From a virus, in the IMG/VR virus record IMGVR_UViG_3300023174_000096, positions 41,517 through 105,516 of that record: DNA of 64,000 bases, one strand, 5' to 3'. Of this stretch, positions 8,277-35,398 are shown one piece after another. A program made the position numbers and the translations under genes. Each line of letters starts with the position of its first letter. Within the stretch, counting starts at the first letter, position 1. The notes under the pieces are model-generated. The model was not told the origin of the DNA. It saw only the letters and a program-made list of their open reading frames with translations, and did not search any database.

Positions 8277-8996
8277 TCAGTGCCAGACGGAGAACTCGTA
8301 CTTGTAGTTGATCTTGTTGGCCTTGAGCCAGTCGTCGAAGTCGTCCCAAGAGATGCCCTTCAGCGCGTCCGGGCTGGCCGTGAGCATCTGGTAGAACTTC
8401 CGAGCCGCCGTGGCGGACGACGACTTGATGATGGTGTAGTGCGGGTCCGACTGCTCAAAATCGCTGTTGGGCGAGTAGGACTTGAACTCCAGCCACTCGG
8501 CCTTCACCGAGAAGTTCTTGCCGTACACCGTGATGGGCTCGACGTTCTCGGGCACCACCGAGAGGTAGTTCACGAGGTCGTCGTACCACTTCACGCCAGA
8601 GAGGTCTCGCATCGGGTCGTACCCCGGCGTGGCGTGGGCTCGCACGTCGGCAAGCACCTTCTCGCTGGTCATCGCGCCGAAGATCTTGTCCTTGATCGTG
8701 TCGAACGAGTCCATCGCGGAAATCTTGCCGTAGTGGCGGATGAGGTTGATGGGCATCCACGCATCGAACTTCGTGGAGAAGTAGGGGTTCCGCAACTCGG
8801 ACACGCGGAGCTTGCGCTTCCCCTTGGCCGGGAGCTCCTCCAGCTTGAACTCGTAGCGGTCCCACGTCAGACGCCACCCGTCACCGACGAGGACACCTTC
8901 CATGGCTCCCGCCGTCTTGAGGATGGGCAGGAGGTGAGGGCGAAGGGTGGGTTGTTGATGGGCCAGACGGATCAGCTTGGAACGGAGTGTTGACAT
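8277..8996 (-). CDS. hypothetical protein with conserved N-terminal leader (copy 1)
   Basis: Begins [30 protein letters not shown]; GAGGA RBS. Confidence 0.75.
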
Positions 8997-9039
8997 GGGC
9001 ATTCCTCTCACATCTCGCAGCTATAAAGAGACCAACGAC

Positions 9040-9288
9040 GTGTGGCATGTCTACGTCCTCACCAGCACCGTCCGGGCTGTCACCTACGTCGGCTGCACCA
9101 ACGACGTGGGGCGCAGGGTGCGCCAGCACAACGGAGAACTCTCTGGGGGCGCGCGGTTCACCCAACGATGGCGACCGTGGGTGCTTGGGGTGGTGTACGG
9201 GCCGTTCGACGGGCGGGGTGATGCCCAGCGGGCCGAGAGGCTGGTGAAGCGCCTACGAGGCCCCGCGCGCCTACGATGGCGGGCGTAA
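9040..9288 (+). CDS. GIY-YIG nuclease, Slx1-like
   Basis: [28 protein letters not shown]...RPW; A..AE helix. Confidence 0.85.
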
Positions 9289-9310
9289 CTACCCGTGGAA
9301 AGGAGCACCC

Positions 9311-9808
9311 ATGATGGGCGCTTTCAACGAGGTAGACGACATGTTCCGTGGAGTTCAGTACAACAAGTTCACGAGTGGGCAGATCCGCGAGGCGATGAAC
9401 CGCAAGGTCGAGGCGGTGCGAGCGAAGATCGAGGAGCGCCGGGGCCGCATCGACAAGATCACCCGCGAGAACGAGATCACCCCCGAGGCCCTGTCCGACC
9501 TCATCGTGCAGTACTCGCAGGACCAGCGCCGGGGCGGAGGGGCCAAGATGTCCTACTCGATCCCGAACAGCAACACTTCTTCTGGCAACCGGACCAAGGA
9601 GACGGTGGTGCCCGCTGGGGTGATCGCCAACCTCGTGACCGAGAAGGAGCTCGTCACCTCCGAGACGGCAGAGGTGAAGCGCCTCGACCTCATCCTCCGC
9701 AACCTCAAGGACGACCAGCCCTTCGTGGACGAGAAGACGGGGGAGCTCCGTTCGCGCGCCGTGATCCACACGCTGGACGACGCCGAGATCGAGTATCTCG
9801 GCTTCTAG
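9311..9808 (+). CDS. hypothetical protein
   Basis: 165-aa ORF with AGGAG RBS and GGGCGTAAC upstream. Confidence 0.7.
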   Translation: MMGAFNEVDDMFRGVQYNKFTSGQIREAMNRKVEAVRAKIEERRGRIDKITRENEITPEALSDLIVQYSQDQRRGGGAKMSYSIPNSNTSSGNRTKETVVPAGVIANLVTEKELVTSETAEVKRLDLILRNLKDDQPFVDEKTGELRSRAVIHTLDDAEIEYLGF

Positions 9809-9858
9809 CCTGTCAGTATCCTCGGCCTTCCAACGTCCAGAGGGGCGTAATGAAGACC

Positions 9859-11040
9859 ATGACCGCCGCCCTCCCCAATCCCGTGGTTCACTACGAGATG
9901 ATCCGCAAAGACCCGCGCAACCCGCTGCGGGTGTTCCCCGAAGACATCAAGTCGAAGATCCTGCACGACCCCTTCAACAAGCAGGGGGACAACCCCCTGC
10001 CCGCGCAGACGGTCAGCGCCTACAGCACCACCTACAACATGATGCGGTCTACCGTCGCTTACGAGCGCGGAGGGCAGCAAGTGGTGGTGCTGGGGCCACG
10101 GATGCAGGAGGCGTTCGCCAACACCTCGCTCTCCGAGGTGAGTGCGGAGCACATCCGTTTCCCCTTCCCCTGCTTCTACCTCGCCACCCCGCAGTCCAAG
10201 CTCAAGGCGTGGGGCGGAAGTGACACCCTGTGGCACCGGGTCGAAGGTGCCTACGTCATGGAAGACCCCGCCGAGCCGGGGGTGATGAGCGTCCTCATCT
10301 GGGGCGCGGCGAACGAGCGGTCGCAGTTTCCCACGGACGACGCGACGTTCTGGTTCTCCATGCGTCTGGGCCACGGCGGGACGGTGGACCTCGACGGCGA
10401 CCTTGAGAAGCGCCTCGACTTGGCCGAGCTTCGCGAAGGCACCCTGCGGAACATCGAACTGGAGTCCGCCGTCACCCGCATGGACCTCGACGCGCGGGTG
10501 AACGGGGTGCTGGACAACCGGGGCGCGAACATCAGTGACCGTCTCGCGAACATCCCTCAATCCGAGGAGCTCGCGCGGGAGGTCAAGGCCATAGTCAAGG
10601 CGTTCCTGCGGGTGGTGATCAACACCCTGCTGTACATCAACAGCGCGTCGTGTGAGACCAAGAGCGCCGACAACGATGGGAAGCGCCGCGAGCTAGAGAC
10701 TGCGCTGGGGCGCAAGAAGCACAAGAACGGCAAGGACGCCAAGAAGCTCGCCCGCGACCTCGACGCCCTCCCCAAGTACCGGGTGACGTGGATCGGCCCG
10801 ACCATCGAAACGAGCGCGGGCGGCGACACAGACCTCACGGGCACCCGCACCGTGAAGGGGCACATTCGCCGGGGCCACTGGCATACCTACCGGGTGGGGC
10901 CGCGAAAGACCGAGGCTGGCGAGAGGATCGACCCTGCGATGCGAAAGGCGTCGCTGAAGTGGGTCGCCCCGGTGTGGGTCGGCGGCGGGGTGCCCGAGGA
11001 CAAGCCCCGCGTCTACGGGGTGCGCGAGCCCGTCACTTGA
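9859..11040 (+). CDS. phage protein with C-terminal HxRRGHW motif
   Basis: GHIRRGHWHTYRVG..KWVAPVWVG. Start is at 9859 or 9850, next to GGGCGTAAT. Confidence 0.65.
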   Translation: MTAALPNPVVHYEMIRKDPRNPLRVFPEDIKSKILHDPFNKQGDNPLPAQTVSAYSTTYNMMRSTVAYERGGQQVVVLGPRMQEAFANTSLSEVSAEHIRFPFPCFYLATPQSKLKAWGGSDTLWHRVEGAYVMEDPAEPGVMSVLIWGAANERSQFPTDDATFWFSMRLGHGGTVDLDGDLEKRLDLAELREGTLRNIELESAVTRMDLDARVNGVLDNRGANISDRLANIPQSEELAREVKAIVKAFLRVVINTLLYINSASCETKSADNDGKRRELETALGRKKHKNGKDAKKLARDLDALPKYRVTWIGPTIETSAGGDTDLTGTRTVKGHIRRGHWHTYRVGPRKTEAGERIDPAMRKASLKWVAPVWVGGGVPEDKPRVYGVREPVT

Positions 11041-11689
11041 TCGCGACGTAGGGGTTCTCCATGAGGTAGTAGTTCATCGGCAACTGATAGAGGTTGCCGC
11101 CGAAGTCCAGAACAAAGTTCTGGCCCTTCACTTCCCGCACGGTCACCACGTCACCGGGGTTCAGCGTGAAACCGCTACGGTATGAGACGGGCTTCAGCAT
11201 CGTCAGCAGCATCCCGGGCTTCAGCGGCTTGGCGTGTTGGACGCCCGCTTCCAGCATGACGAAGTACCGGGGGAAGTAGCTGCGGATGCTCTTCTCCAGT
11301 TGGTCGTGGCTGTCCGAAAGCCCCAGAGCGCGAGCCCACTCCGGGCGTTCGTAGAGGGGGATGCTGATCGCCACGTCCTCCTCGTACCAGTAGTAGCCGT
11401 TGGAGAACTCGGCCATCTTGGTAGCCGCAGCCGTGAGCATCTTCTGGGCTACGCCCTTCGCCACGGCCAGACCACCGTGGCCAGCCGTCCCGTACAGGCG
11501 AACTCCACGAGCCGCTTCCTTCCCGTACTGGGCAGGCCCCCAAGGGGTCCAAGGGGCAGAGCGGTCACCGTCGGGCCAACTCAAGGGGCCAGCGGCGACC
11601 TTCCCGTTGTCCAGCAGCGGGAGGAGGTGTGGGCGAAGGGCGGGCGTCTCATGTGCGAGACGAATCAGCTTGGTGCGAAGGGTGGTCAC
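11033..11689 (-). CDS. leader-bearing protein (copy 2) with DUF7007-like domain
   Basis: MTTLRTKLIRLAHETPALRPHLLPLLDNGKVAAG, then TPWG..TAGHGG..WYEED (family recalled, not searched). Confidence 0.7.
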   Translation of the reverse strand: MTTLRTKLIRLAHETPALRPHLLPLLDNGKVAAGPLSWPDGDRSAPWTPWGPAQYGKEAARGVRLYGTAGHGGLAVAKGVAQKMLTAAATKMAEFSNGYYWYEEDVAISIPLYERPEWARALGLSDSHDQLEKSIRSYFPRYFVMLEAGVQHAKPLKPGMLLTMLKPVSYRSGFTLNPGDVVTVREVKGQNFVLDFGGNLYQLPMNYYLMENPYVAIK

Positions 11690-11732
11690 GGTGAGGTCTC
11701 CTGCTTCTTGCTTTTGATAGACCCGTTAGCGA

Positions 11733-14700
11733 TCACGGGTTGATCTCGATTCCAACGAGGCCCCGAAGGGTGTCCGTCGCCGCCGTTTCGCCGCCTCCCA
11801 CGAAGTTCAGTGCCTTGCCTACCCCGCCCGCATCGTTCTTGATGATGACCTTCACCAGCACCGGGCACTTGCCCTCGCCGTTGATGAACAGCGCGGCAGG
11901 CGAGAGATTCACCGTCACGTCCGTGTAGCGAATCTGGGACACGGTGTCCGTCGCCACGGTGGAGGTCACAAGGCACCCCGCGCCGTCGAGGGCGATGTCC
12001 TGCTTCGACGGACCCGTGCCGTCTGCCCGCCCCGCGTCCATCCACGTCGTCAGCCCCGGCACCTTCACCATCACGGCCATGCCCGTAGCACCCGGCGCGG
12101 TGAGCGCGGTGTACTGGAAGTCCGTGAGCTCCACGCCCCACAGGCGGAAGGTCACCGTGGATAGGCCCGCGTTGGCCGCGTCCGCGTCGAACGCGCGGAT
12201 GTATACCCGGTCGCCCGTGAGCCCCGAGTAGTCTGGCCCTACTGGGACATAGACCGAGGTGTAGTTCGTCTGCGGGTAGATGAGCACCCCCCGCGACGGG
12301 AACGGAGAAGTCAGACCTTCCGTGTAGTCAGGGTTGCGTGCGGGGAGCCCCGCCACCTGTAGGGCGTTTCCGAGATTTCCTGCCGCGTTGACCAACACCG
12401 ACTTGTGGAGGTTCTGGAAGAACCACCCGGGGTAGTTGGGGTCGCCGTTCACCGGGCGCACGGGCACAGCGATGGGTGCGGGTCCGAAGGGAAGCCCCGG
12501 CCCTTGGAGTTGGGTTGCGTCGGCGGGAAAAGTGAAGTTGAGCGGGGTCCAGTTCTCTGGGTAGCGGTAGACCTCGTCCAAGAACCGCTCCGATACGTCC
12601 TTGGGGGCATTGAGCGTGGCCCGAGTTACGTCGTCGGGATTGCCATACGGCACCAGCGCCGCCGTGTTGTCCTCCCGCATTGAGTGGAACAACACCGCAT
12701 CGCCCGTGGTATTGGCGAGGGTGAAGCCCCGTGCAGGGCCACCCGTTCCGCCCGCGTAGGGGAGGGGGTAGCCCGTGACGCCGTCCACGTTCAGCAGCCG
12801 ACGCACGAACAGCCGCGCCTTGGCGTCCGTGGTGAATGCCGGGGTGACCGCATCTCCCGAGAACCGGATGGAGTTCAGCACGTTCCCCGACGCCGTGAAG
12901 TTGTAGATCAGATGGTCTGTGGGCACAGGTGCGAAGGCGTCCGCCGAGGCAAGCGCCACGTCCGCGTAGCCAAACTCGATCCGCTGGCGACGGTACTCCC
13001 CGAGCCCGTTGAAGAACACCGTGAGCGCCGAAGAGATCCCTCCCACGGCAGGGTTCTCTGTGCCCTCGTAGCTGAACGAGGAGAGGGACAGGAAGGCCAA
13101 ATTCTGATTGAGCGCGTACTTCCGAGAGTCGCCCGAGAGCGTGCCTCCCGTGGGAATCACGTCGTGCGAGCGGTAGCTGTCCGCGAAGACGTTGATCACC
13201 TCAAGGTCGAGCACGTTGATCCCGAAGGCCGGGTCGTTCGCCGTCGTGCGGTCGATGGGGACGTAGTATTCGACCCCCGAGTAGAAGGTCGTGTCGCCGT
13301 TGGTGACGTAGGTCACGTCCAAGGTGACGCTGGTGGGGGTGACCGTGCCGCTGTTGTCCTCGACGATTTCCGCGCGGTTCACGGGGTTCGCCACCGACGC
13401 TTCCGGTGACGTGGAGGCCGTGATCAAGTTCTCAAGGATGTCGTAGGGGAAGGCAGAGCCCGTCCATTGCACGAGGTTCACCGAGTACAACTGGTCGCTC
13501 GTCGGCACCACGCCATCCCGCACATACGCCTCGAAGTACGCTTCCTTCTTGAAGTGAACGAGGGCGTAGCTGTCGTCGGTGCGAGTGATTGCCGCCCCCG
13601 TCGCCAGCACGAAGCGGTGACGGTAGCGGGCGATCTGGAAGGCCCAGAAGTCCGCCGTGAAGTCGTCGTAGTCCCCAGCGGGGTCGAGCGTGACCACGCT
13701 GGCCGGGGCGATGGGCGTCGTGAACCGCCCCTTCTCAGCCGTGGGCGTGTAGATCAAGCCCGTCGTTGCCGAGTAGTCCTTGAGGTAGGGGAGGCGGTAC
13801 GCGAAGAAGTTGCTCGCTGTGCCACCGCCAACATTGAACGAGAAACCCGGCAGCGGGACCACTGACCCAATCGCGTTCGCCGTCGCGCCGAAGATGGGCA
13901 GACCACCCGGTGCCGTCCCGGGAGAGAAACCCACCGCTGCGGGGTCCGTGAGCAGTCGCACCTGCCCCGCTGCGGGGTTGAAGAAGGGGTCTTCACCACC
14001 AATGCTGACCGTGGCCCCGAGGTGGATCTCGTCGAGGTTGTACTGCCCCGCCGCGCGACCCGGGAAGTTGTACGGGCTGATGATCGCGTCCACCCCGCCC
14101 GCGCCGTTGACCAGCGTGTACGCACCGGGCGGGGCGGTGTCCGACAGGGAGATCGAGTTGCCCACGGTCCCCGTCGCAACGGGAATGATCTTCACGGTGC
14201 CGCCACCTGTGGGGATGGCCACGAGGAGGGTCGGGAAGTACAGGTTGTTGAGGGCGACCGCGAGGCTCTCCGACGTGAAGACGTTCGATCCGAGAACTTG
14301 GAACTCGTAGGGGGTCGTCGGCGCGGCGACGGTCGCCGTGAAGGTCACGAGCCCGGGCGGTCCACCGGGAAGCCCCGTCAGATCGAGGGTGATGGTATAC
14401 GGCGGAGCGGGGTTGGTGTTGTTCGTGATCAACGCCGAAGCGCGGGTGCCCCCCGAGGCTTCGACGAAGACCCCACCGGGCTCGCCGTCGCACCCGTTGT
14501 CGAGCACCCCCTTGCCGAGCAGAAGCGCCGCCACACAGCGGGCCTGAATGTCCGCGACGGACGCAGCGGGTCCGAAGTCAGGTTCGGTACCCGTGGGCCA
14601 CTTCACCAGCGCGAGCACCCCACGGTCGGCGGGGGATACGATGCCCGACACCACCGCGTGAGGGTCCGCGATGGAGGTGAAAATCCGCCACGTCGGATAA

Positions 14701-15260
14701 CCAGTGCCCACCCCTCCCATCGACAGGGTGGCGAAGCCAGCGTGGACCTTGCCCTCACCGCCGCCCGAGTACAGACCGTTCACCACGTTGAACGTCGGGT
14801 CCGTCGCGGGCTCGACGCCCGTGCCCGTCACTCCCGAGCCAGAAGCCGTGATGGGTGCCCTGTAGTAGTAGGGATACACGGCGCGGGCGTCTGCTGCCAC
14901 GTTGCCCGTGAAAGGCAGGATGCCGTCCCAGAGCTTGAGGATGCCCCAATCGGGCACACCCGTGTTGGAGCTCCCAAGCCATGCCACGCCTTCACTGCCC
15001 ACACCGCCCATTGGAGGAGGAATGAGCGCCGCGAGGTCATCGAGGGACACCTGTACGTTCACCCCCGAGTACCGCTCGTACAGGTTGAGCGTCGAGATCG
15101 CCGTCGCGGGGTGTGCGCCCGTGGGGTTCTCGACGTGCGCGTCGAGAGAGCTCGACGGAGCGCCAACGTCACCGGGAGTGAGAGACGAGGGGCTGACCGA
15201 GCCGGGGGGCGCGAGCCCACCGCCCGTGAGAATTCCCAAGGGGTCGTCAATGCGCGGCAT
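11733..15260 (-). CDS. large virion structural (tail/baseplate) protein
   Basis: 1175 aa, Gly/Thr/Pro/Val-rich, directly downstream of the 1076-aa structural gene. Confidence 0.7.
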   Translation of the reverse strand: MPRIDDPLGILTGGGLAPPGSVSPSSLTPGDVGAPSSSLDAHVENPTGAHPATAISTLNLYERYSGVNVQVSLDDLAALIPPPMGGVGSEGVAWLGSSNTGVPDWGILKLWDGILPFTGNVAADARAVYPYYYRAPITASGSGVTGTGVEPATDPTFNVVNGLYSGGGEGKVHAGFATLSMGGVGTGYPTWRIFTSIADPHAVVSGIVSPADRGVLALVKWPTGTEPDFGPAASVADIQARCVAALLLGKGVLDNGCDGEPGGVFVEASGGTRASALITNNTNPAPPYTITLDLTGLPGGPPGLVTFTATVAAPTTPYEFQVLGSNVFTSESLAVALNNLYFPTLLVAIPTGGGTVKIIPVATGTVGNSISLSDTAPPGAYTLVNGAGGVDAIISPYNFPGRAAGQYNLDEIHLGATVSIGGEDPFFNPAAGQVRLLTDPAAVGFSPGTAPGGLPIFGATANAIGSVVPLPGFSFNVGGGTASNFFAYRLPYLKDYSATTGLIYTPTAEKGRFTTPIAPASVVTLDPAGDYDDFTADFWAFQIARYRHRFVLATGAAITRTDDSYALVHFKKEAYFEAYVRDGVVPTSDQLYSVNLVQWTGSAFPYDILENLITASTSPEASVANPVNRAEIVEDNSGTVTPTSVTLDVTYVTNGDTTFYSGVEYYVPIDRTTANDPAFGINVLDLEVINVFADSYRSHDVIPTGGTLSGDSRKYALNQNLAFLSLSSFSYEGTENPAVGGISSALTVFFNGLGEYRRQRIEFGYADVALASADAFAPVPTDHLIYNFTASGNVLNSIRFSGDAVTPAFTTDAKARLFVRRLLNVDGVTGYPLPYAGGTGGPARGFTLANTTGDAVLFHSMREDNTAALVPYGNPDDVTRATLNAPKDVSERFLDEVYRYPENWTPLNFTFPADATQLQGPGLPFGPAPIAVPVRPVNGDPNYPGWFFQNLHKSVLVNAAGNLGNALQVAGLPARNPDYTEGLTSPFPSRGVLIYPQTNYTSVYVPVGPDYSGLTGDRVYIRAFDADAANAGLSTVTFRLWGVELTDFQYTALTAPGATGMAVMVKVPGLTTWMDAGRADGTGPSKQDIALDGAGCLVTSTVATDTVSQIRYTDVTVNLSPAALFINGEGKCPVLVKVIIKNDAGGVGKALNFVGGGETAATDTLRGLVGIEINP

Positions 15261-15262
15261 GG

Positions 15263-18200
15263 TCAGTTCCCTGCGGAGAGGAGGAGGTTCTTGGTGCGAT
15301 AGACAGCCACCACCGAGGTCGGGACACCCATAGGGTCGGCCACGATGATCTTGTTGTCCGCGTCGAGGATCGCGAAACGCGAGAACACCACGAGGACGAG
15401 CTCGCTGGGGCGAAACAGCAAGCTGGGGACTGCGGGGTTGACCCGCGCCAGCATGGTGGTGAAGGTCTTGTGCCGCACGGCCCCGGAGAGCGGTTGGGTC
15501 ATCGCCGTGGGCTTGTACCCGAGGTGGTTGACGTAGTCGTAGAAGGCACGGAACTCCGCGTCGATGGCCGTCCCCCTGCCTGCCACGGCGTTCCCGAGGG
15601 TCATGAGGTTCGACCCGTCCATCGGGACCATCGAGTGCAGGGTGAGCGTGCCCGTCGCAGCGTTGAAGTCACTCACGGACACCGTGGCCGTCGCCGCGAA
15701 GTACCACTCCTGCGGGAACCCAATGCCCACGTTGGGGGTGGGGATGGGGTCGAGCGGCGCGGCGTAGGGGAAGGCGAGTTCTGCACTGCCCGCACTGGTC
15801 TGACCCGTCCAGATTTGGTTGGACACGGACAGGGGTTCCAGCACCAAGCCCTCCGGGAGGAGCGTCGTGGGCACCCCGCCCGCTTGGACGCCACACGTCT
15901 GGGGCGCGGTCGTCTGGTAGTACACGTCGAGGCGGTACCCCGTGCCCGCGTCGGGGATCGGGTCTTGCGGTGTGTAGACCACCACCACGGGGACTTGTTG
16001 ACCCGCTGCGGGGTTGATGGTGACCTTCCGCTCCGAGCTCCCGAGAGATGCGGCCAGCGTCGGGAGACCGCCCACCGTGAGGCCCGTGGTGGTCTGGATG
16101 CGCCGAGGCGGATACACTAGGGTTTGACTGCGGGTGACGACGGTGTCGGTCACCAACTGGGACTTCTGCTCCAGCAGCACCTCACGGAACGGCACCCGGA
16201 GCTTGGGCTGTGGCACCCACGTCGCGTCCATCTCCGTCGGCCTTTGTGCCGCGTCGTACTGCACAATCGCCCCGCCGTCATACGGGGCGTAACCCGTGCC
16301 CGTGTCGGGGGTGAGCGCAGCACGGGGCGTGCGAGTGAGCCCCGCGCCCGTGGGGTAGGTGATCTCAAGCTCGATGAACAGTCGCCTCCGCGAACCGTTG
16401 CCGCCGAGGACCGTGTCCACGAGCTTTGTCCCCGACCCTACCACGTTGATCACCTGTGGGTTGGCGTCGAGGGTCATGGTGACGATGTCCGTCCCGATCC
16501 CCACGATGTTCTTGAACTGGATCGTCTGGTCTACCGGGACGGTGCTGTGACCGTCGTCGTGGTAGCTCACCAGCACGTCGGTCACGCGCGTCCCCAAGGG
16601 CCACGTCCCGGCCACCGTGTTTACCGCCGGGGCGGCGGTCCAGTTCTGGAGGGACGAGGTACGGAGCGCGCCAAAGTCGAGAGTGACAGTGTCCCCCTCT
16701 GTCCAGCGGTTGACCGCTGCGTTCGTCACCGCGAAGCCCGGGGGGTACGGCCCCGCGTTGGGGAGAACTTCAAAGATCACGCGCTCGACCACGGGCTGCG
16801 AGCCAAACCGTCTCGCGATGTGGTCGAACGTGCGGATGCGGTCGCCAAACACGTTGGCCGAGGGGTCGGTTGAGCGGGCGATCTCGTCGCACACCATCGG
16901 GGTGGTGGACTGCCCGCCCGACCCGCTCCCAATGATCCCCATGTCCGAGGCGTCCACCTGCCAAGTGAGGTTGGTGGAGTCGAGGAGGGATTGGGTCTGG
17001 ACCTTGAGCTCCGAGGCGTAGTCGTACCCCGGCGGGGTGACGTGCCGACGAAGGTCGAGGATGTCCACCGCACTGATGAGGTCGTGGAACAGACCGTCCG
17101 GGCGATCTGACTTGGTCGCCACGATGGCCACGGGACCCGCGCTGTCGAGGTGCGTGTTGTTGAAACCAAGGTGCGTCTGGGAGATGCCCCCGTTGGCGTT
17201 CCCTGCGGGGTTGAATCCACCCGTGCCCGAAGCGTCGTTGCGGCGGAACGCGAAGCACACGGGGATCGCGTACACGAACCCGTCCGCCGTGCCCAGCGCC
17301 GTGGCCGACGCAGAACTGCCATCACCCGCGAGGTACAGACCCCCGTCCACGAACCCGTAGGCCGTCGCGTCCGAGTTGAGGTTGATGGTGGTGTTGTCAG
17401 CAGGGACGAAGGGGTAGCCCGCGACGGGAGCGCCTGTAGCGCCCTGTGCGAGGACGCTGATGTTGCTGAACCCATCGGGCTGCGTCTTGGGGTTCACCCC
17501 GAGCGGCACGTCACCGTAGACACGGATGCGGTACTGCACCTGCACCCGTTGGGTGCTCTCCACGTTCAACGCCGGGTCTACCAAGTTGTCCGGGAGGTCC
17601 ACGCCCGAGGGAGAGCTCACGTTGCCGTGTCGGTAGATCGTGTCCTGCGTGGGCTTGTTCGGGCGATTGGCACCCCCCGTGAGGTTCGGCCCCGAGAGGA
17701 CGATGGAGCCCGCCACTGCTTCCACCCTCGCGAGGGTGACACCGTTGCCCGCTGCGCCACCAGCACCCGCTGTCACTTGGACGATGCTGGAACTGTGGGC
17801 GTTCGCCACGGCGAAGTTCGGGTACAGCGCAGTGGCATTGATTGCCGCCGCGAGGTTGATCCCCGTCACGTCCGCGTTCGCGCCGATCTGGAACTGGTTC
17901 GGCCCCGGCACACCCACGACCGCTGTGAAGGTCACGGTGGGGCCAACAATCGCGCCCGTGTTGAGGGTGACGGTGTCCCCCGCAGAAATCGAGAACGGGG
18001 CGTTGGCGATCTGGACATACCCGTAGGCGCGGGGCGACGGTGCCACCTGTGCGCGCCACACCTCCAAGAACACGAAGTCCGTGCGCTTGATGTCCGGGGG
18101 CAGACCCGAGGAAGGGTCTGCCGGGGGGAGCGTGATGAGGTTCTGTCCCGCCGTCGTGGTGTTGGTGTACTCGACCACCACGGGCATCCCCGCCACGTTG

Positions 18201-18493: not shown

Positions 18494-18547
18494 TTCTCGT
18501 CGCCTTCGCCTAGCGGTTGGGGATAGGCTTTCTAGCCGCCCACGACC

Positions 18548-20985: not shown

Positions 20986-21029
20986 GATATGCTGGCATAT
21001 TACCCGATGGTGTGGGGCTTGTCACGAGA

Positions 21030-21689: not shown

Positions 21690-21703
21690 ACCCACCTCTG
21701 GTT

Positions 21704-21715
21704 ATAGGCGGGAAA
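21704..21715 (-). promoter_or_regulatory. candidate late promoter motif TW-N6-CTAT (representative copy)
   Basis: TTTCCCGCCTAT here and at 41347-41358. Related copies at 8257, 11717, 18523, 22068, 32251, 39339, 41259, 43058 (minus) and 45058-45069 (plus). Confidence 0.6.
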
Positions 21716-21739
21716 CCCTACCGCGAGGGGCGGGGGATG

Positions 21740-22045
21740 TCAGACGGGAGGTTTGCCGCGAAAGGCACGGATGCTGGGGGCGTTGGTTTCCACGACCTCC
21801 TTCGACCCGTCTTCCCACTGGATGAGAGACTTGAAGGGCTTCGCGGAGGTCATCTTGAGGATCGTCCCGTAGACCGATCCGGTTCCCTTGGCGTCCGACT
21901 TGACCACAGAATACCCGACCTTCCAAGGTGAGGTGGCACCCTTCCCCGGAATAGCCGCTTCTTTGAGGAGGGGCAGGAGGTGCGGACGAAGTTCGGGCTG
22001 TTGGTGCGCCAGCCGGATGACCTTGGAACGGAGAGTGTTGCTCAT
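21740..22045 (-). CDS. leader-bearing small protein (copy 3) with SH3-like beta domain
   Basis: [31 protein letters not shown], then WKVGYSV..GTIL..IQWEDG. Confidence 0.7.
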   Translation of the reverse strand: MSNTLRSKVIRLAHQQPELRPHLLPLLKEAAIPGKGATSPWKVGYSVVKSDAKGTGSVYGTILKMTSAKPFKSLIQWEDGSKEVVETNAPSIRAFRGKPPV

Positions 22046-22090
22046 GATGCCTCAATGGCGTGATGGAATAGACTCTCAAACGTCTGGGAC

Positions 22091-27763: not shown

Positions 27764-30700
27764 CTATCGTTGTCGTAAGTGAACGTCACATCACCGAGGA
27801 CGAGATACTCCATCGAGTTGGGGTCGATGTCTTTGTCCCCCAAATCCGTCGCGGTGATGTAGGTACACCAGTAGGTGTGGTTCGACGGCGCGTCCCCCAC
27901 GGGGAGGGACACCAGCACTCGATTCCTTACGGAGCCAGTGCCCGTCCCGTAACCGGGAATCACCTGCCCGTCCGCCCCGATGATGTAGGCTTGGTTGGGC
28001 CGCATCCCGAGGTTCTGGGGCGCGGTCACTTGCAGTGTGAGCTCCGCGTCGTCTTGGAAGACCCCACGGAACTCATTGGGAGGCCCGCCACCCGTGAGCG
28101 TCGGCGCGTCGAGTTCTTGGAGAATCAGCCACACGGCGTACTGACCGTTGGACCATGCGTTCACTCGGAACGAGTCCCCGAAGGTCGCCGTGGACAGGTC
28201 ATTGCGGACGATCTGGTAGCCCGCCTGACGGACCATCTTGGTGAGCGGGACGACGACGTAAGAGACGCCCGCCGTCCCGTCGATCTCCGCGATCACGTCA
28301 CTCCGTCTCATCGGGTCGCCCAGCTTGAGCGTCCCGATGAGGTACTGGAGGTTGTTGCGGATCGCGATGTCCACGTTGGTGCGGTCGAAGCCCCGCTTGA
28401 GGATCACCGTGGCGGTGATGTCCACGGGGATCTGGACGGCTTGCTTCGCGAGCACATCCGACGTGGCGTGGGCCATGTCATCGAGATCCTGCTGGAGCAC
28501 CGAGGTCACGAGGTTGGTCTGGTACGCCACCACAAAGTTCTCGTAGTAGCTGTACGAGATGGTCACCGTGTCACCATCCGCGATGGCGCTCCCCTCCGTG
28601 CGTCGGATGCCCGCTGCGACGGTGCTGGACCCCTCGATGATGGTGTAGTCGGGCGATCCGCTGGGGTCGTAGGGGCCTTTGTAGGTGACCGTCCCTGATT
28701 GGTTCTTGACCACGATGGAAAGGGTCTCCGCGCCGAGGTTGTACAAGAACTCGGTGTAGAAACCCGTGACGACGTGGGGCTCGTCCACCACGGGGATGAG
28801 GTTGCCCGAGGGGGACACCACCGTGGGGTCAGCGGACTGATTGATCTGGAGGTAATCCCCCGCTCTGGTCGAGTACCCGAGGCCCAAGGGGCTGTTCGGG
28901 CGCACGAGCGTGTAGAGGGAGATGTCCACCGGGCCGATCACCTCGCCCGTCACGTTCAGAATCCCCGACACGGGCTGGCGCGTGAAGACGTGGCGATTCC
29001 CGAGACGGAACCGGAAGTCCCCCAGCACGATGTCGGTGAGGGTGACCGGAGGCTGCGGGATGGTGATGTCAAGCTGGATGGTGTTGAAGTTGAGGTAGGT
29101 GACATTCGTGAGGTCGAACGTCTCTCCCGTGGTTACATTCTTCAGCCCGAGTCCGTAGGTGGGGTAGTCGAGCATCTGGGCGAGCGGGTTGTCGGGCGTG
29201 ACCTCTTCGCTCACCACCCGGAAGACGTAGTTGAGCGGGCTCCCGATCACCACGAACTGCACGTCGTTGCGGCGCTCGTAGGTGAAGGCAAAAATGTCGT
29301 TGACGGTCACGGTGCGGACACCCCGCGCCCACACGTCCACCTTGCCTCCCAAGTGACGCTTGAGGGTGGTGTCGTAGTCCCGCTGCATCAGCGGGTCGCC
29401 CGCCCGGACCACGACGTTCTGAATCGTCCCCGGCACCCCTGCCGCGACTTGGGCCATACCCTGCGTCGTCCCGGTGTCCACGGACGCGAGGGCCGTGCGT
29501 GCCCTCGCCGCCAACTGGGCGTTGGTTTCCTCGTTGGCTCCCCCGAAGGTGGCAGCGTCGTTGGTGACGGCCATCCCGTACACGTTGGAGCCCGTCAGTT
29601 GGCGCGGTCCGACGTTGGTCACCGTCCCCACGGTCAACGCCCTCACGGGCACCGTGACCGAGTACTCCCGCGTCGAGGGGTTGTAGTAGCTGGCGAGCAG
29701 GGCCACGTCCATGACCGCCGAGCGAGACGTGCGGAACTGCACACCCCCGCCGAGGATCACGGTCCCAAGCGGGATGGTGATCGTGCGCGTCGGGGGAGAC
29801 AACGTGAAGAACCGCACTTCTCCCACGGCGGGAGTGCCCGCGCGTCGGATGACCCCGAAGTTCGCCGCGATCTTGTCGAAGCTCCCGTCGATGACGCTCT
29901 GCACGTCGTCCACGTTGGAGTAGAAGAAGGCCGCTGCGAGGGCCGTCTTGTACGCCGACGAGGCGGGAGGGTTGGATACCCCCGAGCCCGTGGGGTCGTC
30001 CACCAAGAGCAGGGTGTCGAACGAGCTCGCGCGGTACACATAGTCGAGCAGCAACCGAAGGCGCTCTGCCTCCGTGGTGAACGGGTCCAAGAAGATGTCC
30101 CGCACCACCGAGCCGGGTTGGACCGCGATATCCGGGTTCTGTCGGTAGATGGTCGCGATGGCGCTCTCAAGCATCTGCTGGCGCGTGACCGCCGTGAGCC
30201 CGTTGATCTGCTGGCGCACCTGCGCTGGAGCGCCCGCCACCTCCGAGGAGAAGTAGGACTCGTACTCGACCTTGATGACCGGGTCGTAGTAGATCGCCGT
30301 CGCGACGTAGTAGAGGAGATCCGTCGAGGGGGTGCTCGCGAACACGCCGCTGAACACCGTGGCGGGGTTGGACAGGGCGTTCGCGGTGCGGACGTGCGTG
30401 AAGCTGAAGTAGTTGATCGTCGTGACCGACGACACGGACACGTTGGTGCGGATGGTGGTGATGTCACTGGGGAGCTCCACCCGCGAGTCCACGTCCGTGG
30501 ACAGCACCACCTCGCTGCTGTTCTCTTGGTCGATCTTGGCGCGGTAGTAGAGGGGCGTCGCCGTCTGCGCCACTGCGTCCGCCGTGAGGGCGTACAACTC
30601 TGTCGAGTTCTGCACGGGGGTGCCCGTGGTCACCCGGTTCACGTTGATGATCCGGTAGCCGTCCGCGCCGCCCCCCTGCGTCGTGGCCGCGTAGAAGTTG

Positions 30701-31131
30701 TACCCGACGATGCGGCTATCAGTGAGCCCCTCGACCGTCACCTTCACCGAGCCGTCGAGGCGCTCGATGGTCACGCCCGTGGGAGGGAGGAACACGTCGG
30801 CCTCCTCCGGGGGGAGGAGACGGACCACCACCGTCGCCGGGACGCTGCGCCCGCCCGCGAGGTTGACCGCCCGGACTTGGATCGTGTTGTCGCCCGAGAA
30901 GAGTTCCAGCCCGGTGGGGTACGCGCTGGGGTTCGGGACGGTGAACCCCGTGCCCACGAAGGCCACGAGCGTCGGGTCAGCCGTGAAGGGTTGCCCGAAG
31001 AGAGACACCTCCACGTCCACGGTGTCGTCGGGGAGGGTGCCCGTGAAGAACCGGGTGGTCTGCGTGGTCGAGAACGTGGAGGTCTCCCGCAACACGTTGT
31101 CGGGACCAAGGAACTGCACAGAGGTCGCCAT
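27760..31131 (-). CDS. baseplate J-like wedge protein
   Basis: PGSVVRDIF, DKIAANFGVIRR, IPLGT, GGANEETN, GGKVDVW, SDVIAEIDGTAGVSYV. Confidence 0.85.
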   Translation of the reverse strand: MATSVQFLGPDNVLRETSTFSTTQTTRFFTGTLPDDTVDVEVSLFGQPFTADPTLVAFVGTGFTVPNPSAYPTGLELFSGDNTIQVRAVNLAGGRSVPATVVVRLLPPEEADVFLPPTGVTIERLDGSVKVTVEGLTDSRIVGYNFYAATTQGGGADGYRIINVNRVTTGTPVQNSTELYALTADAVAQTATPLYYRAKIDQENSSEVVLSTDVDSRVELPSDITTIRTNVSVSSVTTINYFSFTHVRTANALSNPATVFSGVFASTPSTDLLYYVATAIYYDPVIKVEYESYFSSEVAGAPAQVRQQINGLTAVTRQQMLESAIATIYRQNPDIAVQPGSVVRDIFLDPFTTEAERLRLLLDYVYRASSFDTLLLVDDPTGSGVSNPPASSAYKTALAAAFFYSNVDDVQSVIDGSFDKIAANFGVIRRAGTPAVGEVRFFTLSPPTRTITIPLGTVILGGGVQFRTSRSAVMDVALLASYYNPSTREYSVTVPVRALTVGTVTNVGPRQLTGSNVYGMAVTNDAATFGGANEETNAQLAARARTALASVDTGTTQGMAQVAAGVPGTIQNVVVRAGDPLMQRDYDTTLKRHLGGKVDVWARGVRTVTVNDIFAFTYERRNDVQFVVIGSPLNYVFRVVSEEVTPDNPLAQMLDYPTYGLGLKNVTTGETFDLTNVTYLNFNTIQLDITIPQPPVTLTDIVLGDFRFRLGNRHVFTRQPVSGILNVTGEVIGPVDISLYTLVRPNSPLGLGYSTRAGDYLQINQSADPTVVSPSGNLIPVVDEPHVVTGFYTEFLYNLGAETLSIVVKNQSGTVTYKGPYDPSGSPDYTIIEGSSTVAAGIRRTEGSAIADGDTVTISYSYYENFVVAYQTNLVTSVLQQDLDDMAHATSDVLAKQAVQIPVDITATVILKRGFDRTNVDIAIRNNLQYLIGTLKLGDPMRRSDVIAEIDGTAGVSYVVVPLTKMVRQAGYQIVRNDLSTATFGDSFRVNAWSNGQYAVWLILQELDAPTLTGGGPPNEFRGVFQDDAELTLQVTAPQNLGMRPNQAYIIGADGQVIPGYGTGTGSVRNRVLVSLPVGDAPSNHTYWCTYITATDLGDKDIDPNSMEYLVLGDVTFTYDNDR

Positions 31132-32231
31132 CAGTAGTTCCCCAAGGACAGGCGGTTGGTTCCCGGCAGCGCGAACGTACCGGGGGCCGAGTACACGATG
31201 GAAATGGTCACGGGTTCAGACGAGTAGTTCCGCACGTCTACCTCGATGAGGAAGGTCGTGGGGTCGTTGGGGGACGGGGCCACGGCGATGTTGTCCACGG
31301 AGAAGAGCCTCTCCTTGGCCGTGACCCGCTGGTACTTGGACTGCGCGTTCTGGAGGTTCTGGAGGTTCGTGAGGGCTTGGCTCACCGACTGACGGATGCC
31401 AATCGCCGTGCCCCCCAGCACCTTGCTCCCGATACGCGAGACGAGGTCAGACCCATACCAAGTGTGGTAGATGTTCGACCCGAGCTCCGTCAGGATCATC
31501 TTGAGGCACATCTGGTAGAGCAGGTTCTCGTCCTGCACCACCAGCGCCTCGCCCTGTGGGTCGAAGCGGTAGTCGTTCTCGACCTCCGTCGCCCTGCAAC
31601 GGAGGCACAGGTACGGGGCCACAGGATACGTCACCGTGAAGAACGCTTCCTGCTTGACGACGGAGTCGAACCCGATGTAGTAACCGAGAGAATCCACGGC
31701 GTCTTCGGGGTTGACCGCCGTGCGAGAGTAGAGCCTCCACGGGGGGATCACCGTTTTGCCACGGTCGCCGCTCTGCTGGTCGAAGCCCAAAGGCTCCAGC
31801 GCCGAGCCCGTGAGTTGAATCCTCGACGTGGGGCCGGGAGTCGCTGTGTCCGTCAGGGTGATGTACCCGTTGGGGGAGGACACCACCACGAGCCCCCTCA
31901 CTGCTGCGGTGAGGGTGGCAGACACCTGCGCCGCCGACAGGTAGCCCGACGAGAAGTTCACCGTCGCCGCGCCCGCCCCCGTGGTGAGCACCAGCGTGCG
32001 GGTAGCCGTCGTGATCTTGTAGGGCTCGCGGCGGTAGGACCGCATCGTCGCCGGGGTCACCAGCCCCGTGAAGGGGGAGACAATGGCGTCGTCGTTGACG
32101 CGGACTTGCACCAGCGTCGGTCCAGAGATGGGCTTGGCCGTGTACAGCGTGCGTCGGTCGGTGCCGAGAGAGACCCTCTCCTCACCGATGACGTGGCTAC
32201 AAGTGAAGGCAAGCTGTACGTCGCGCGACAT
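31131..32231 (-). CDS. baseplate wedge protein, gp25/GpW-like C-terminal domain
   Basis: LYQMCLKMILTELGSNIYHTWYGS, located upstream of baseplate J. Confidence 0.75.
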   Translation of the reverse strand: MSRDVQLAFTCSHVIGEERVSLGTDRRTLYTAKPISGPTLVQVRVNDDAIVSPFTGLVTPATMRSYRREPYKITTATRTLVLTTGAGAATVNFSSGYLSAAQVSATLTAAVRGLVVVSSPNGYITLTDTATPGPTSRIQLTGSALEPLGFDQQSGDRGKTVIPPWRLYSRTAVNPEDAVDSLGYYIGFDSVVKQEAFFTVTYPVAPYLCLRCRATEVENDYRFDPQGEALVVQDENLLYQMCLKMILTELGSNIYHTWYGSDLVSRIGSKVLGGTAIGIRQSVSQALTNLQNLQNAQSKYQRVTAKERLFSVDNIAVAPSPNDPTTFLIEVDVRNYSSEPVTISIVYSAPGTFALPGTNRLSLGNY

Positions 32232-32267
32232 GGTTCACCGTGTGGTCGCGATAGCGGGGAAACCGCT

Positions 32268-33164
32268 TCAACCAATGGCCGTCCACGCCTCCTCGCCGTT
32301 GGGGGCGTCGTCGAGGAGCATGGGCTGCGCCGGGTTCGGACCCGTCTGGCGCGGGCGACTGAAGTCCCGCGACCCGTCGTTCAAGGTGTCCGGGTAGAAC
32401 GCCGTGTCGATCTGGTCCACGATGGCCGAGACGTTGTGCGTGATCGCGTACTCGCCGTTGTCCGTCCACTGCAACCCCGGCACAGCCCCTCCCACGGCTT
32501 GGGGGAGGAGCTCGTCGCGCTCGATGGTGAGTTGCTCGCGGAGGTCGCAGAGCTTGATGATCCGGGCCTCCAAGTCGTTCCGCAGCGTTCGGATTTCTTG
32601 GGTGACCCACCCGCGCATGGCGTGGACCGTCCGGGTCATGTCCGCCGACTGCTGGGTGTAGCTCACGGCGTTGCCAAATCTCCGTGGGGGGTACCGCCAC
32701 AGGGGGAGCCACCCGCCGATGTAGATGCCGCCCGTCATGGGGTCCGTGCTCCCGGCGCTCGCGATGCCACCGTAAGGCTGCGTCTCTTGGACGTTGCTGG
32801 CCGGGGTCGCCTGTGGGTTGTCGAGGTCCGTCTGCGACTGCTCCGTCGCGTCCTCGACCACCTGCACCGCGTTGGGCGTCAGGAACATGGAGATGTCGAA
32901 GGGGTTACCCCCCATCGCGATGTACGCGCGGAGGAGCTTCTCGATGCTGGTGTTGGGGGTGACATCCAGCCCGATGCGGCGCTCCGTCATCGCGTTGGGA
33001 TTGCTGGCGTTTCGCTCGTAGAGGATGCGGATTTCTCCAATGCGGGCGAGCTCCGCGTTGATCGTCGTGACCCGCGCCATCACGTCCTGACGCTGGTTGA
33101 GGATGAAGCGTCGGAACTCACGATAGGCCCCGGCTCGGAAAAATCCTGTCCATCCGAAACTCAT
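32268..33164 (-). CDS. probable virion structural protein
   Basis: 298 aa with GGAGG RBS, at the head of the baseplate block; coiled-coil segments. Confidence 0.55.
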   Translation of the reverse strand: MSFGWTGFFRAGAYREFRRFILNQRQDVMARVTTINAELARIGEIRILYERNASNPNAMTERRIGLDVTPNTSIEKLLRAYIAMGGNPFDISMFLTPNAVQVVEDATEQSQTDLDNPQATPASNVQETQPYGGIASAGSTDPMTGGIYIGGWLPLWRYPPRRFGNAVSYTQQSADMTRTVHAMRGWVTQEIRTLRNDLEARIIKLCDLREQLTIERDELLPQAVGGAVPGLQWTDNGEYAITHNVSAIVDQIDTAFYPDTLNDGSRDFSRPRQTGPNPAQPMLLDDAPNGEEAWTAIG

Positions 33165-33295
33165 GGCCTAACCTCCGAAGTTGTTGATGTTTTCTCACGA
33201 CGAAGACGATGAGCCTCGATTGCAGACGGGCGCATCTTCTCCTTGGTTTCAGGAGTGTTCGTTCGACGGGGACGTGCCTGTGCTGCTTTTCGCAT
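33161..33295 (-). CDS. 44-aa basic ORF with NUMOD3-like motif (possible endonuclease remnant; not in ORF track)
   Basis: MRKAAQARPRRTNTPETKEKMRPSAIEAHRLRREK... ATGA overlap with the next gene; late motif upstream. Confidence 0.4.
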   Translation of the reverse strand: MRKAAQARPRRTNTPETKEKMRPSAIEAHRLRREKTSTTSEVRP

Positions 33296-33302
33296 TCGTT
33301 CC

Positions 33303-33596
33303 CTACTCTAGCGGGGGGATAGACGAACTGAAGGCTCGCTCCCGGTCGAGCATCTGCACGATGGCCCGAGCTCGCGCCCGCCGGAAGTTCACCACCTCAC
33401 CGAAGAGGTAGAGGGCGAAGGCCGCTCCCAAGGTGTACACCCCGTAGACGGCCTTGTCGGGCTCGTGAGCGACGGGGGCAACGAGCGCCACGGTTGCTCC
33501 GATCATGGCCAAGAAAAAGGCAGGGACGCCCAAGTAGCTGCGTCCGAGGTTGGCACGGGTGCGGAGGTTTAGCTCCTCTTTGTCCGTCAGGTCCAT
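33303..33596 (-). CDS. two-TM membrane protein
   Basis: Two hydrophobic helices (VPAFFLAMIGATVALVA; VYGVYTLGAAFALYLF). Confidence 0.6.
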   Translation of the reverse strand: MDLTDKEELNLRTRANLGRSYLGVPAFFLAMIGATVALVAPVAHEPDKAVYGVYTLGAAFALYLFGEVVNFRRARARAIVQMLDRERAFSSSIPPLE

Positions 33597-33659
33597 CTCA
33601 TCACCCTACGCGAGCGTAATCGGTTACAGGAGCACCCTTGGCTCCGTTGAGGTTTTACG

Positions 33660-34103
33660 ATGGCCACCATCATCCCGACAGAGGGGGAGCTCCTTGAGGT
33701 CCCCGCCCCCGGCAACTCCACGGAGGCCCAGACCGTTCTGGGCGCGCTTGGGGTCGTTGCACACGGAGCCCCGGATGGCTCATCGTGGTGGGTTCTCGAC
33801 CCCCCTCTCGTGGGCGACACGGCCCCCAACCACCGGGCCACCCGGTTCTACGCCAACCGTGTGGGGGGTACAGCGCCACGGACACTGTACGGCAAGGTGC
33901 TGTACATGAGCGCCGACGAGACCAAGGCCCTCAACGGCGCGAAGCCCGCTGAGGAGATGGTGCCGATCCGTGGGCGCACCTACGAGGTGCGGGGCCTCCT
34001 CAAGGCGATTGGTGCCCGGTGGTTCGCCGCCGAGAAGGTCTGGAAGATCGCCAAGGCCAACCTCGCGGAGGCCGAAGAGATCGTGAGGCGCGGGTGCGGG
34101 TGA
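33660..34103 (+). CDS. hypothetical protein
   Basis: 147 aa; C-terminal TYEVRGLLKAIGARW..KVW is a motif common in phage proteins. Confidence 0.6.
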   Translation: MATIIPTEGELLEVPAPGNSTEAQTVLGALGVVAHGAPDGSSWWVLDPPLVGDTAPNHRATRFYANRVGGTAPRTLYGKVLYMSADETKALNGAKPAEEMVPIRGRTYEVRGLLKAIGARWFAAEKVWKIAKANLAEAEEIVRRGCG

Positions 34104-34242
34104 AGAGGAAGCCCAAGGGGCCTCCCCGGTGTGCCCTCAAGGGCTGCGTGGGGTGGGGCGGCACTTGCGTGTGCCCACGCATCTCGTGGGCTCCCACAGA
34201 GAAATCCACGGGGGTCGGCGTCAGGGCTTGGCTGGGCTTCCG

Positions 34243-34401
34243 TCAGTCGCGTCGGAAGTAGTCGTAGAGCACCCTGCCCATGTCCCGGTCACAGAGGTAG
34301 CAACGGATGCCCTTGGGAGTGATCCGCAGCCACTTGTGCTCGCAGGGGTCTTCGACGAGGGATTCCCAGCGATCCTCTTGGTCAGGCTCCTCGTCCTGCA
34401 T
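34243..34401 (-). CDS. 52-aa zinc-ribbon-like protein (not in ORF track)
   Basis: MQDEEPDQEDRWESLVEDPCEHKW..RCYLCDRD; CTAT motif 14 nt upstream. Confidence 0.5.
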   Translation of the reverse strand: MQDEEPDQEDRWESLVEDPCEHKWLRITPKGIRCYLCDRDMGRVLYDYFRRD

Positions 34402-34468
34402 ACCCTACGGGGACGATAGACGCTCTGTAACCGTCTTCACGAGGGGGTAGCATCGCAGAGGAGAACCG

Positions 34469-35020
34469 ATGACTTTGACCGTGATTTGCGGACCCATGTT
34501 CGCAGAGAAGTCCACCACCCTCTACCGCTACGTCTCACGCGCCCTGCGCTCCAAAAAGCGCGTGGATGTGGTCGTGCCCACGGTGGACACCCGCAGCAAG
34601 GGACAAGTCGTCACCCACTCCGGGCTCACCCTTGAATCGCTGGGAGTGACGCCGAGAACGGTGGCCACGTCGTCGGACCTGTACCGGGCGATGCCCACGC
34701 CCGCGCCCGACCTGATGGTGATCGAAGAAGCCCAGTTCTTCGACATCGACCTCCCGCTGTGGGTCGGGAAGCTCGTCGAGCGGGGTGTTCACGTCGTCGC
34801 GGCGGGGCTCGACCTCACCAGCGAGGGCGGACCCTTCGGCCCGATGGGGCACCTGATGTGCCTCGCGGACCGGGTCGAGAAGCTCACGGCGATCTGCGCG
34901 TGCGGTGCGGAGGCGACCCGGACGATGTGCAGGGTGCGGAAGGACGGCGCGGTGCTGGTGGGCGGTGGCGGTGAGTACGTCCCGGCGTGCCTACCGTGCT
35001 GGATGAAGCGCCCGCGCTAG
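34469..35020 (+). CDS. tdk: thymidine kinase
   Basis: GPMFAEKST, EEAQFF, AGLD, KLTAICACG, VGGGGEYVPACLPC. Confidence 0.9.
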   Translation: MTLTVICGPMFAEKSTTLYRYVSRALRSKKRVDVVVPTVDTRSKGQVVTHSGLTLESLGVTPRTVATSSDLYRAMPTPAPDLMVIEEAQFFDIDLPLWVGKLVERGVHVVAAGLDLTSEGGPFGPMGHLMCLADRVEKLTAICACGAEATRTMCRVRKDGAVLVGGGGEYVPACLPCWMKRPR

Positions 35021-35023
35021 TCG

Positions 35024-35398
35024 TTAGCGGGCGAGTTTCGTCAGAGCCTCAAAGGCTTCTTGCATCGGACGGCTCTGCGAGCGACGGCAGTCCATCAGGC
35101 TGTGTTGGACCTTGTCAAGGATCTTGACCAAGAAGTCATGACCCTGCCCGGGGTTCTGTTCGGCCCCGTCGAGGACGTGGGCGAACGCAAGGCGCGCGTT
35201 TTCTTCAGCCATCCGCAGGTAGGCGATGGCGTCGTTCATGGCTTCCTTCGCCGCCCCGTAATCCGACTTGCTCGAATCGACCGACTCGAAGACCATCGGT
35301 CCCGCCGTCTTGGTGAGGAGGGGCATGAGGTGCGAACGGAGCTCCGGGTTGGTGTGAGCCAGCCGGATGATCTTGGAACGGAGTGCTTGATCGCTCAT
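35024..35398 (-). CDS. leader-bearing helical protein (copy 4)
   Basis: MSDQALRSKIIRLAHTNPELRSHLMPLLTKTAG. Confidence 0.7.
   Translation of the reverse strand: MSDQALRSKIIRLAHTNPELRSHLMPLLTKTAGPMVFESVDSSKSDYGAAKEAMNDAIAYLRMAEENARLAFAHVLDGAEQNPGQGHDFLVKILDKVQHSLMDCRRSQSRPMQEAFEALTKLAR

Follow-up and report, generated by a model that had tools for sequence, protein, structure and literature searches.

Why should four otherwise unrelated proteins, dispersed over a fragment of a viral genome, begin with nearly the same peptide? The question is raised by a stretch of 64,000 nucleotides (hereafter the window, always meaning this whole stretch) that covers positions 41,517 to 105,516 of the IMG/VR virus record IMGVR_UViG_3300023174_000096, and in which four minus-strand genes (starts at 8996, 11689, 22045 and 35398) encode a common N-terminal peptide of about 30 residues, after which the proteins diverge completely. 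The shared module itself is about 26 residues long and is named the LR tag here. A sequence-only reading of the window had pointed out the near-identical N-termini, which translation, alignment and profile searches confirm, and had proposed that they load interchangeable cargo into the phage head. The modular tag on interchangeable cargo is strongly supported by the observations, the evidence for loading into the head is circumstantial, and the LR tag is probably a portable docking tag for one common partner.

The LR tag, a peptide module on unrelated proteins

In an alignment of the four proteins, 16 columns are invariant in the first 26 residues and one more in the poorly aligned remainder. 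A hidden Markov model (HMM) built from the four leaders and searched against 2,076 six-frame open reading frames (ORFs) of the 105.5 kb genome recovers the four genes with E-values from 2e-22 to 6e-20, whereas the best unrelated ORF reaches only 0.09, so that the match is far beyond chance. The same search finds a fifth copy (E 5e-13) at the very C-terminal end of a protein that is encoded outside the window and whose body is a 2H phosphoesterase (2H-SAK, PF22547, E 8e-17). Therefore, the description of the peptide as a leader does not hold strictly; elsewhere about 17% of the copies are C-terminal or internal, and some proteins carry several. Between any two of the copies, 4-13 of the 16-21 codons for the same residue differ, and such frequent synonymous differences indicate that selection acts on the peptide and not on a DNA repeat.

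The consensus, derived from 332 distinct copies, opens with serine or threonine and contains the residues L, R, I, R, L, A, P, L, R, L, L, P and L, each position being at least 82% one residue (the A, both P and the second R were fixed by the pattern used for collecting the copies). Arginine or lysine is conserved at motif positions 1, 6 and 15, counting the first L as 0, and is frequent at positions 3 and 23, while the C-terminal copies stop directly after LLPLL. The K-x-A followed by a small residue, which had been described as the end of each leader, is indeed found in all four (with G or A next), but in the wider family it is a mere tendency, as the K is present in 50%, the A in 39% and the following A or G in 45% of the 332 copies. 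Likewise, the description of the peptide as basic, amphipathic and distinct from Sec and Tat signals agrees with inspection, by which no Sec or Tat features are seen: a charged residue occurs every 3-4 positions, and there is neither an uninterrupted hydrophobic stretch nor an RR pair. The C-terminal and internal copies also exclude such a signal.

At the structural level, AlphaFold2 predicts two short helices joined at a conserved proline, with a predicted local distance difference test score (pLDDT) of up to 97, within an otherwise unfolded protein carrying four tags (predicted template modelling score 0.31). In the model of gene 1 (whole-model mean pLDDT 88.1) the tag scores 63-77, as against more than 90 over much of the domain, which is as expected for an appended flexible tag. 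No curated family in Pfam, NCBIfam or PHROGs corresponds to the peptide, the sole family signals being sub-threshold matches to DUF6193 (E 1.5e-4 to 0.01); the tag profile has no match among PDB sequences up to E 10, the ESM Atlas returned nothing, and literature searches with exact-string variants of the motif and with DUF7007, the cargo of gene 2, turned up no paper.

The family is large. A profile made from the five copies was run against 1.84 billion representative proteins, where it picked up 3,334 clusters at E ≤0.001 (405 at E ≤1e-10); a single distant relative of the source phage, the uncultured phage LR745208.1, has 11 strong copies, and five phage fragments of 94-266 kb have 10-15 profile matches apiece. 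The 41 tag-bearing IMG/VR contigs that were recovered range in GC content from 45% to 70%. The expectation that searches of this genome and related phages would yield many more tags on diverse domains was thus borne out, but not that they would be exclusively N-terminal: in 125 viral ORFs, 106 copies (about 83%) are N-terminal, 5 C-terminal and 17 internal (128 parsable copies of 135 in total), and more than one copy is present in eight of these ORFs. Of the 150 database proteins that score best, 105 bear two tags, 28 three and 4 four, and up to five copies are found in a single protein; since the scores of several copies in one protein are summed, this list favours multi-copy proteins. The linkers of the multi-tag proteins examined are rich in K, E and D. 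Tagged genes frequently form runs of 3-4 consecutive genes, resembling the variable internal-protein loci of T4-like phages, as at L044:5393-8613, L057:4847-10265 and L080:3859-9719.

A degenerate DNA pattern, run against 596 Gb of cellular genomes with each species represented once, matched only six places, five of them true copies. All five lie on contigs of four environmental metagenome-assembled genomes, and four of the five contigs share other ORFs with phage contigs. Nearly all occurrences of the LR tag fall within a single group of uncultured huge phages.

Cargo, a second tag and the genomic setting

A flexible linker joins the tag to its cargo, which varies freely. The cargo of gene 2 is a DUF7007 domain (Pfam PF22653, E 1.2e-15, residues 47-144), and among 50 homologues of this domain the tag is found in eight, at the N-terminus in six, at the C-terminus in one (P0175) and internally in one (P0185), the remaining 42 having no tag or other short N-terminal peptides. 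For gene 1, seven of 26 cargo homologues bear the LR tag and most others have a short helix of the type RVAxR[FY] at the same place (10 by the strict pattern), with the K-T-A-G junction unchanged after it, which means that K-x-A-G is not specific to the LR tag. Thus the same cargo can be tagged at either end or internally, be tagged otherwise, or be untagged. Tagged homologues of gene 3 (45-46% identity) occur at three viral loci, and a tagged homologue of gene 4, 80% identical, is encoded on a viral contig of 266 kb. A Foldseek search of the PDB with the gene-1 cargo gave nothing at E ≤0.001, and the best VIA-align Z was 4.1. Across the family, the cargo that could be recognised comprises 2H phosphoesterase, RelA/SpoT, GNAT, pentapeptide repeats, WGR, DUF5710, TFIIS_M and a weak ParB-like match.

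Two further features of tagged proteins are recorded here as observations in their own right. In a subset, a second conserved stretch (E-F/W .. H-P-x-A-D-x-K-x-H) comes immediately after the LR tag. Also, DGHHRW domains, which are ParB-like, are present in four of the top 150 proteins and in the ORFs L057:6552-10268 and L080:3871-6465.

The RVAxR[FY] peptide appears to be more than a peculiarity of the gene-1 family. In the proteins of this genome it is found 4 times, as compared with 0.4 expected from shuffles, and 2,264 ORFs of viral loci contain 35 matches against 4.7 expected (an overall enrichment of about 7-10 fold). Three sites of this type lie inside multi-domain proteins of 1289 and 560 amino acids, close to the end points of alignments with separately encoded homologues. 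Specifically, the L053 homologue of the 1289-residue protein is split into two genes at about its RVAQRF site, and the last domain of the 560-residue protein has a stand-alone homologue (L024:3843-4283) that starts MGNSSIRVAYRYL and thus has the peptide at its N-terminus.

It had also been claimed that each of the four genes is preceded by its own copy, or a one-mismatch variant, of a motif found before baseplate genes. This holds for genes 2 and 3, whereas genes 1 and 4 have loose variants only. The heptamer [GT]TCTAT[CT] is strand-biased, with 10 occurrences on the minus strand of the window and none on the plus strand. Six of the 10 are located 18-44 nt ahead of gene starts, those of genes 2 and 3 among them, a placement that makes the heptamer a candidate promoter element in this phage. 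Large genes in the neighbourhood, some of them adjoining baseplate genes, are preceded by it as well. A fixed upstream motif, ACGT-N6-GTCTAT, showed no enrichment and was discarded. The coordinates of these features are collected in the table below.

Table. Tagged genes, RVAxR[FY]-type sites, promoter-like heptamers and tags followed by the second conserved stretch (positions are those of the window unless another record is named; aa, amino acids)
Feature	Position	Strand	Remarks
Gene 1, 239 aa	8277..8996	-	tag residues 1-30 (8907-8996), then alpha/beta domain; HMM E 2e-22
Gene 2, 218 aa, GTG start	11033..11689	-	tag residues 1-32 (11594-11689), then DUF7007
Gene 3, 101 aa	21740..22045	-	tag residues 1-31 (21953-22045), small familyless domain; HMM E 3.5e-22
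Gene 4, 124 aa	35024..35398	-	tag residues 1-33 (35300-35398), helical familyless domain; HMM E 5.9e-20
Fifth tagged gene, 189 aa	G000:C1:19478-20044 (= L001:4479-5045), outside the window	-	C-terminal tag; HMM E 5e-13; body 2H phosphoesterase by Pfam
KLASRY (RVAxR[FY] type)	38407..38424	-	internal domain border of the 1289-aa protein; alignment end points
RVAQRF	37201..37218	-	second internal domain border of the 1289-aa protein
RVASRY	41768..41785	-	ahead of the C-terminal domain of the 560-aa protein
GTCTATC (heptamer)	11716..11722	-	33 nt upstream of the gene 2 start
GTCTATT (heptamer)	22067..22073	-	28 nt upstream of the gene 3 start
Heptamer positions	11722, 15304, 22073, 34421, 39344, 43063 and four more	-	
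Tag with second conserved stretch	P0012, P0016, P0018, P0022 and 8 more; L057:6552-10268, L080:3871-6465		

The source assembly is a single contig of 105.5 kb, rated 24% complete, of a phage of roughly 450 kb. Its genes include those for baseplate wedge proteins, PhoH, a DNA polymerase, a DnaB-type helicase, a CCA-adding-type nucleotidyltransferase and methyltransferases, but most of its large ORFs belong to no family; one of them, of 3538 amino acids and outside the window (G000:C1:29781-40397; L096:4781-15397), combines a high third-position GC content with zero PHROG matches. Gene 4 sits 41 nt downstream of the gene for the 1289-residue multi-domain protein, which has a CCA-adding-type domain; together with the 2H phosphoesterase and PhoH, this domain suggests a theme of RNA repair or cyclic nucleotides.

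Close kin of the fragment are IMG/VR contigs of 57-266 kb. The more distant LR745208.1 (485 kb, probably complete) has a DNA polymerase 64% identical to that of the fragment and a capsid protein matching gp27 of phage G (PDB 6wkk, E 1e-59), and by capsid protein the nearest cultured phages are Tunturiibacter phage Tunturi_5 (48% identity) and Bacillus phage G (37%). The head protease of the kin is homologous to the protease annotated in Tunturi_5. Pfam gave no match to an HK97-type head protease on the fragment; the T4 protease (PF03420) and T4 capsid (PF07068) families had no match in the fragment or in four kin records either, although the control genomes were likewise silent. Some genes of the kin may be interrupted: the DNA polymerase homologue of LR745208.1 (284702-289945) matches in three pieces over 5.2 kb for a query of 888 amino acids, which suggests inserted elements such as inteins or introns, and in L107, L108 and L110 (8751-12863) the head-protease homologue has 1371 amino acids as against about 480 elsewhere, its homologous parts forming four blocks split by three long insertions, possibly inteins.

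Where the tagged proteins may go

If the LR tag is a docking tag, all tagged proteins would bind one shared receptor through it. The capsid is the best single destination on circumstantial grounds, although the claim that the common partner is the capsid interior stands somewhat below an even chance. In that case, the receptor would most likely belong to the assembling head, as part of its scaffold or core or as the capsid protein of phage G type, bound on its inner face; the tagged accessory enzymes would be enclosed in the procapsid and subsequently delivered with the DNA into the next host; and proteins with several tags on charged, disordered-looking linkers would act as multivalent bridges or as scaffold-like components of that network. 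Removal of the tag cannot be a general requirement of such a process, given the C-terminal and internal copies.

Several lines of evidence point to the head. More specifically, (i) the head module of LR745208.1 has the order protease homologue, charged scaffold-like protein, tagged gene of 134 amino acids, decoration protein and capsid protein, and a second tagged gene lies about 6 kb away; (ii) the multi-tag proteins P0005, P0014 and P0015 share a DEPYMK-type motif with the C-terminus of a large protein, the gene of which lies immediately upstream of that for the protease in eight head-module loci; (iii) the LR tag swaps with RVAxR[FY] in the gene-1 family, and in several kin (L109, L111, L113) RVAxR[FY] is also found in this giant head-module protein; (iv) two of the four genes share the promoter-like heptamer with neighbouring large genes; and (v) the 2H, RelA/SpoT and ParB-like cargo overlaps the domains found in MuF- or portal-fused or polyvalent proteins of other phages.

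A number of points weigh against this destination. Only two of the 11 copies in LR745208.1 are found at a distance of about 7 kb or less from the capsid gene, a marginal excess by a rough estimate, and the DEPYMK link concerns three of the top 150 proteins. On the fragment itself, no capsid gene was recognised by the Pfam T4 and HK97 capsid families or by phmmer with kin head proteins (no significant match), nor was a portal or terminase gene, and the five tagged genes are dispersed among genes for tail, baseplate, replication and RNA-repair functions, outside any head module. There is no conserved cleavage site after the tag in the 332 copies. Two candidate similarities to head proteins failed, as the CIRIAxAM stretch of the scaffold-like protein of the clade aligned to the tag with an hhalign probability of 0.3% and the C-terminal helix of the protease (TLIRLASLL) with one of 0.2%. 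Effector-like cargo fits any common destination equally well. Finally, Tunturi_5 and phage G have no tag match with either of two profiles (a positive control genome gave 12 matches), so that the tag is not needed to build heads of this capsid type, and no cultured phage is known to carry it.

Taken at its widest, the capsid reading would make the LR tag and RVAxR[FY] a kind of postcode system, by which dozens of accessory enzymes and polyproteins per genome are addressed to the interior of the procapsid, with the disordered multi-tag proteins as its matrix; this is put forward tentatively. If true, it would amount to a natural, sequence-defined code for loading cargo into very large capsids, and the injected arsenal of a phage could be read from its genome.

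Among the other explanations, the one that fares best is that the tag docks proteins on a different hub inside the cell, such as a replication or transcription factory, a phage compartment, the ribosome, RNA polymerase or the membrane, and thereby concentrates accessory enzymes at their site of action. Everything that speaks for a portable docking module fits this equally, the tagged genes adjoin those for the 2H phosphoesterase, the CCA-adding-type nucleotidyltransferase, PhoH and DNA polymerase, the RelA/SpoT and TFIIS_M cargo is linked to translation and transcription, and phage G and Tunturi_5 manage with the same type of capsid protein and no tag match. However, no candidate hub has been identified, while the few contextual links that exist point to proteins of the head module; moreover, a host hub must be conserved across the hosts of phages of 45-70% GC, which is possible for universal proteins only. 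An intracellular hub is possible but doubtful.

The multi-tag proteins invite another explanation, namely that the tag binds to itself, so that proteins with several copies form a network or condensate which single-tag proteins join as clients. The prevalence of two, three or four tags among the top 150 proteins, their charged linkers and the confidently predicted tag helices in an otherwise unfolded chain all agree with it. Yet that list is biased as described above, in the less biased viral loci only eight of the 125 ORFs have more than one tag, and a condensate would need a reason for its restriction to these phages. A complex prediction with four copies of the tag scored 0.01, which weighs neither for nor against self-binding. 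Self-association is unlikely, and would be compatible with either destination.

It is quite improbable that the tag is a regulatory handle, that is, a degron or an adaptor site for a chaperone or protease that times stability or folding. A short and mostly terminal peptide on many unrelated, non-essential proteins would suit such a role, but internal copies and up to five tags per protein are hard to explain as degrons, and at least 12 strictly conserved positions across the GC range suggest a structured interface with a co-evolving partner. A repeat acting at the DNA level (a recombination site or an RNA element) or a chance resemblance can practically be discarded, in view of the codon differences (up to 13 of 18), the same peptide at 45-70% GC and HMM E-values of about 1e-20 as against 0.09.

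Known address peptides and what the tag would mean

A short address peptide on interchangeable cargo is already known from T4. Its capsid targeting sequence (CTS), of 10 residues, suffices to bring into the head internal proteins that are not related to one another, and also foreign proteins such as GFP (PMC9026906). The CTS of IPI-III and Alt and the LR tag are both short, modular and mostly N-terminal, and both are attached to otherwise unrelated accessory proteins; in T4 these are fast-evolving, and their functions include anti-defence and host take-over. Unlike the CTS, the LR tag has about 26 residues, is predicted to form a helix-kink-helix, occurs also at C-termini, internally and in multiple copies, and is followed by no cleavage consensus. 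As to the heads, the capsid protein of the LR-tag kin is like gp27 of phage G, and the T4-type head has the gp23 capsid and gp21 protease. What sets the LR tag apart is its greater length, predicted structure, free position, multiple copies and occurrence in a different, uncultured lineage; its function is so far presumed from sequences and models.

In terms of structure, a parallel is the scaffold of phage P22, which binds the coat protein via a helix-turn-helix according to one report (10.1101/2022.12.13.520362). The AlphaFold2 model and the conserved R/K positions make the LR tag, too, a basic two-helix unit, and in both cases such a small unit is carried on a flexible, charged protein; the P22 unit binds the inside of an HK97-fold shell. 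In P22, one C-terminal copy is present on one dedicated scaffold, whereas the LR tag is spread over dozens of unrelated proteins per genome, and no sequence relatedness of the tag to a P22-type or other solved scaffold domain was found among PDB sequences up to E 10. Fusions to the coat-binding unit of the P22 scaffold load cargo into P22 particles.

Encapsulin cargo-loading peptides and the encapsulation peptides of bacterial microcompartments are also short and terminal, are found at either end of the cargo on a linker and bind the interior of a shell, which in encapsulins shares the HK97 fold. These peptides are cellular and have other motifs, whereas the presumed shell of the LR tag is a phage capsid, to which binding is inferred only. 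A further parallel is provided by 2H, RelA/SpoT and ParB-like domains that are fused to MuF or portal domains, or form part of polyvalent proteins; packaging and injection of these proteins is assumed, for the most part because of their genomic context (PMC5512222). In both systems, conflict domains that can be exchanged for one another are coupled to an address. In the MuF and portal system, however, the address is a whole structural domain and not a peptide of 26 residues, and the Pfam scans made of tagged proteins revealed no MuF or portal domain.

To our knowledge, the stocking of very large capsids with proteins has so far been studied only in T4 and phiKZ-like phages. If the LR tag is an address label, the accessory proteins that are delivered together, or brought to the same place, by many uncultured huge phages could be listed from sequence, and more than 3,000 clusters of orphan proteins would become one functional class, plausibly including anti-defence and host take-over factors. 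It would also provide a handle on how such capsids are supplied with their proteins, and a loading peptide that is short, structured and independent of position could serve for packing cargo into phage-derived particles.

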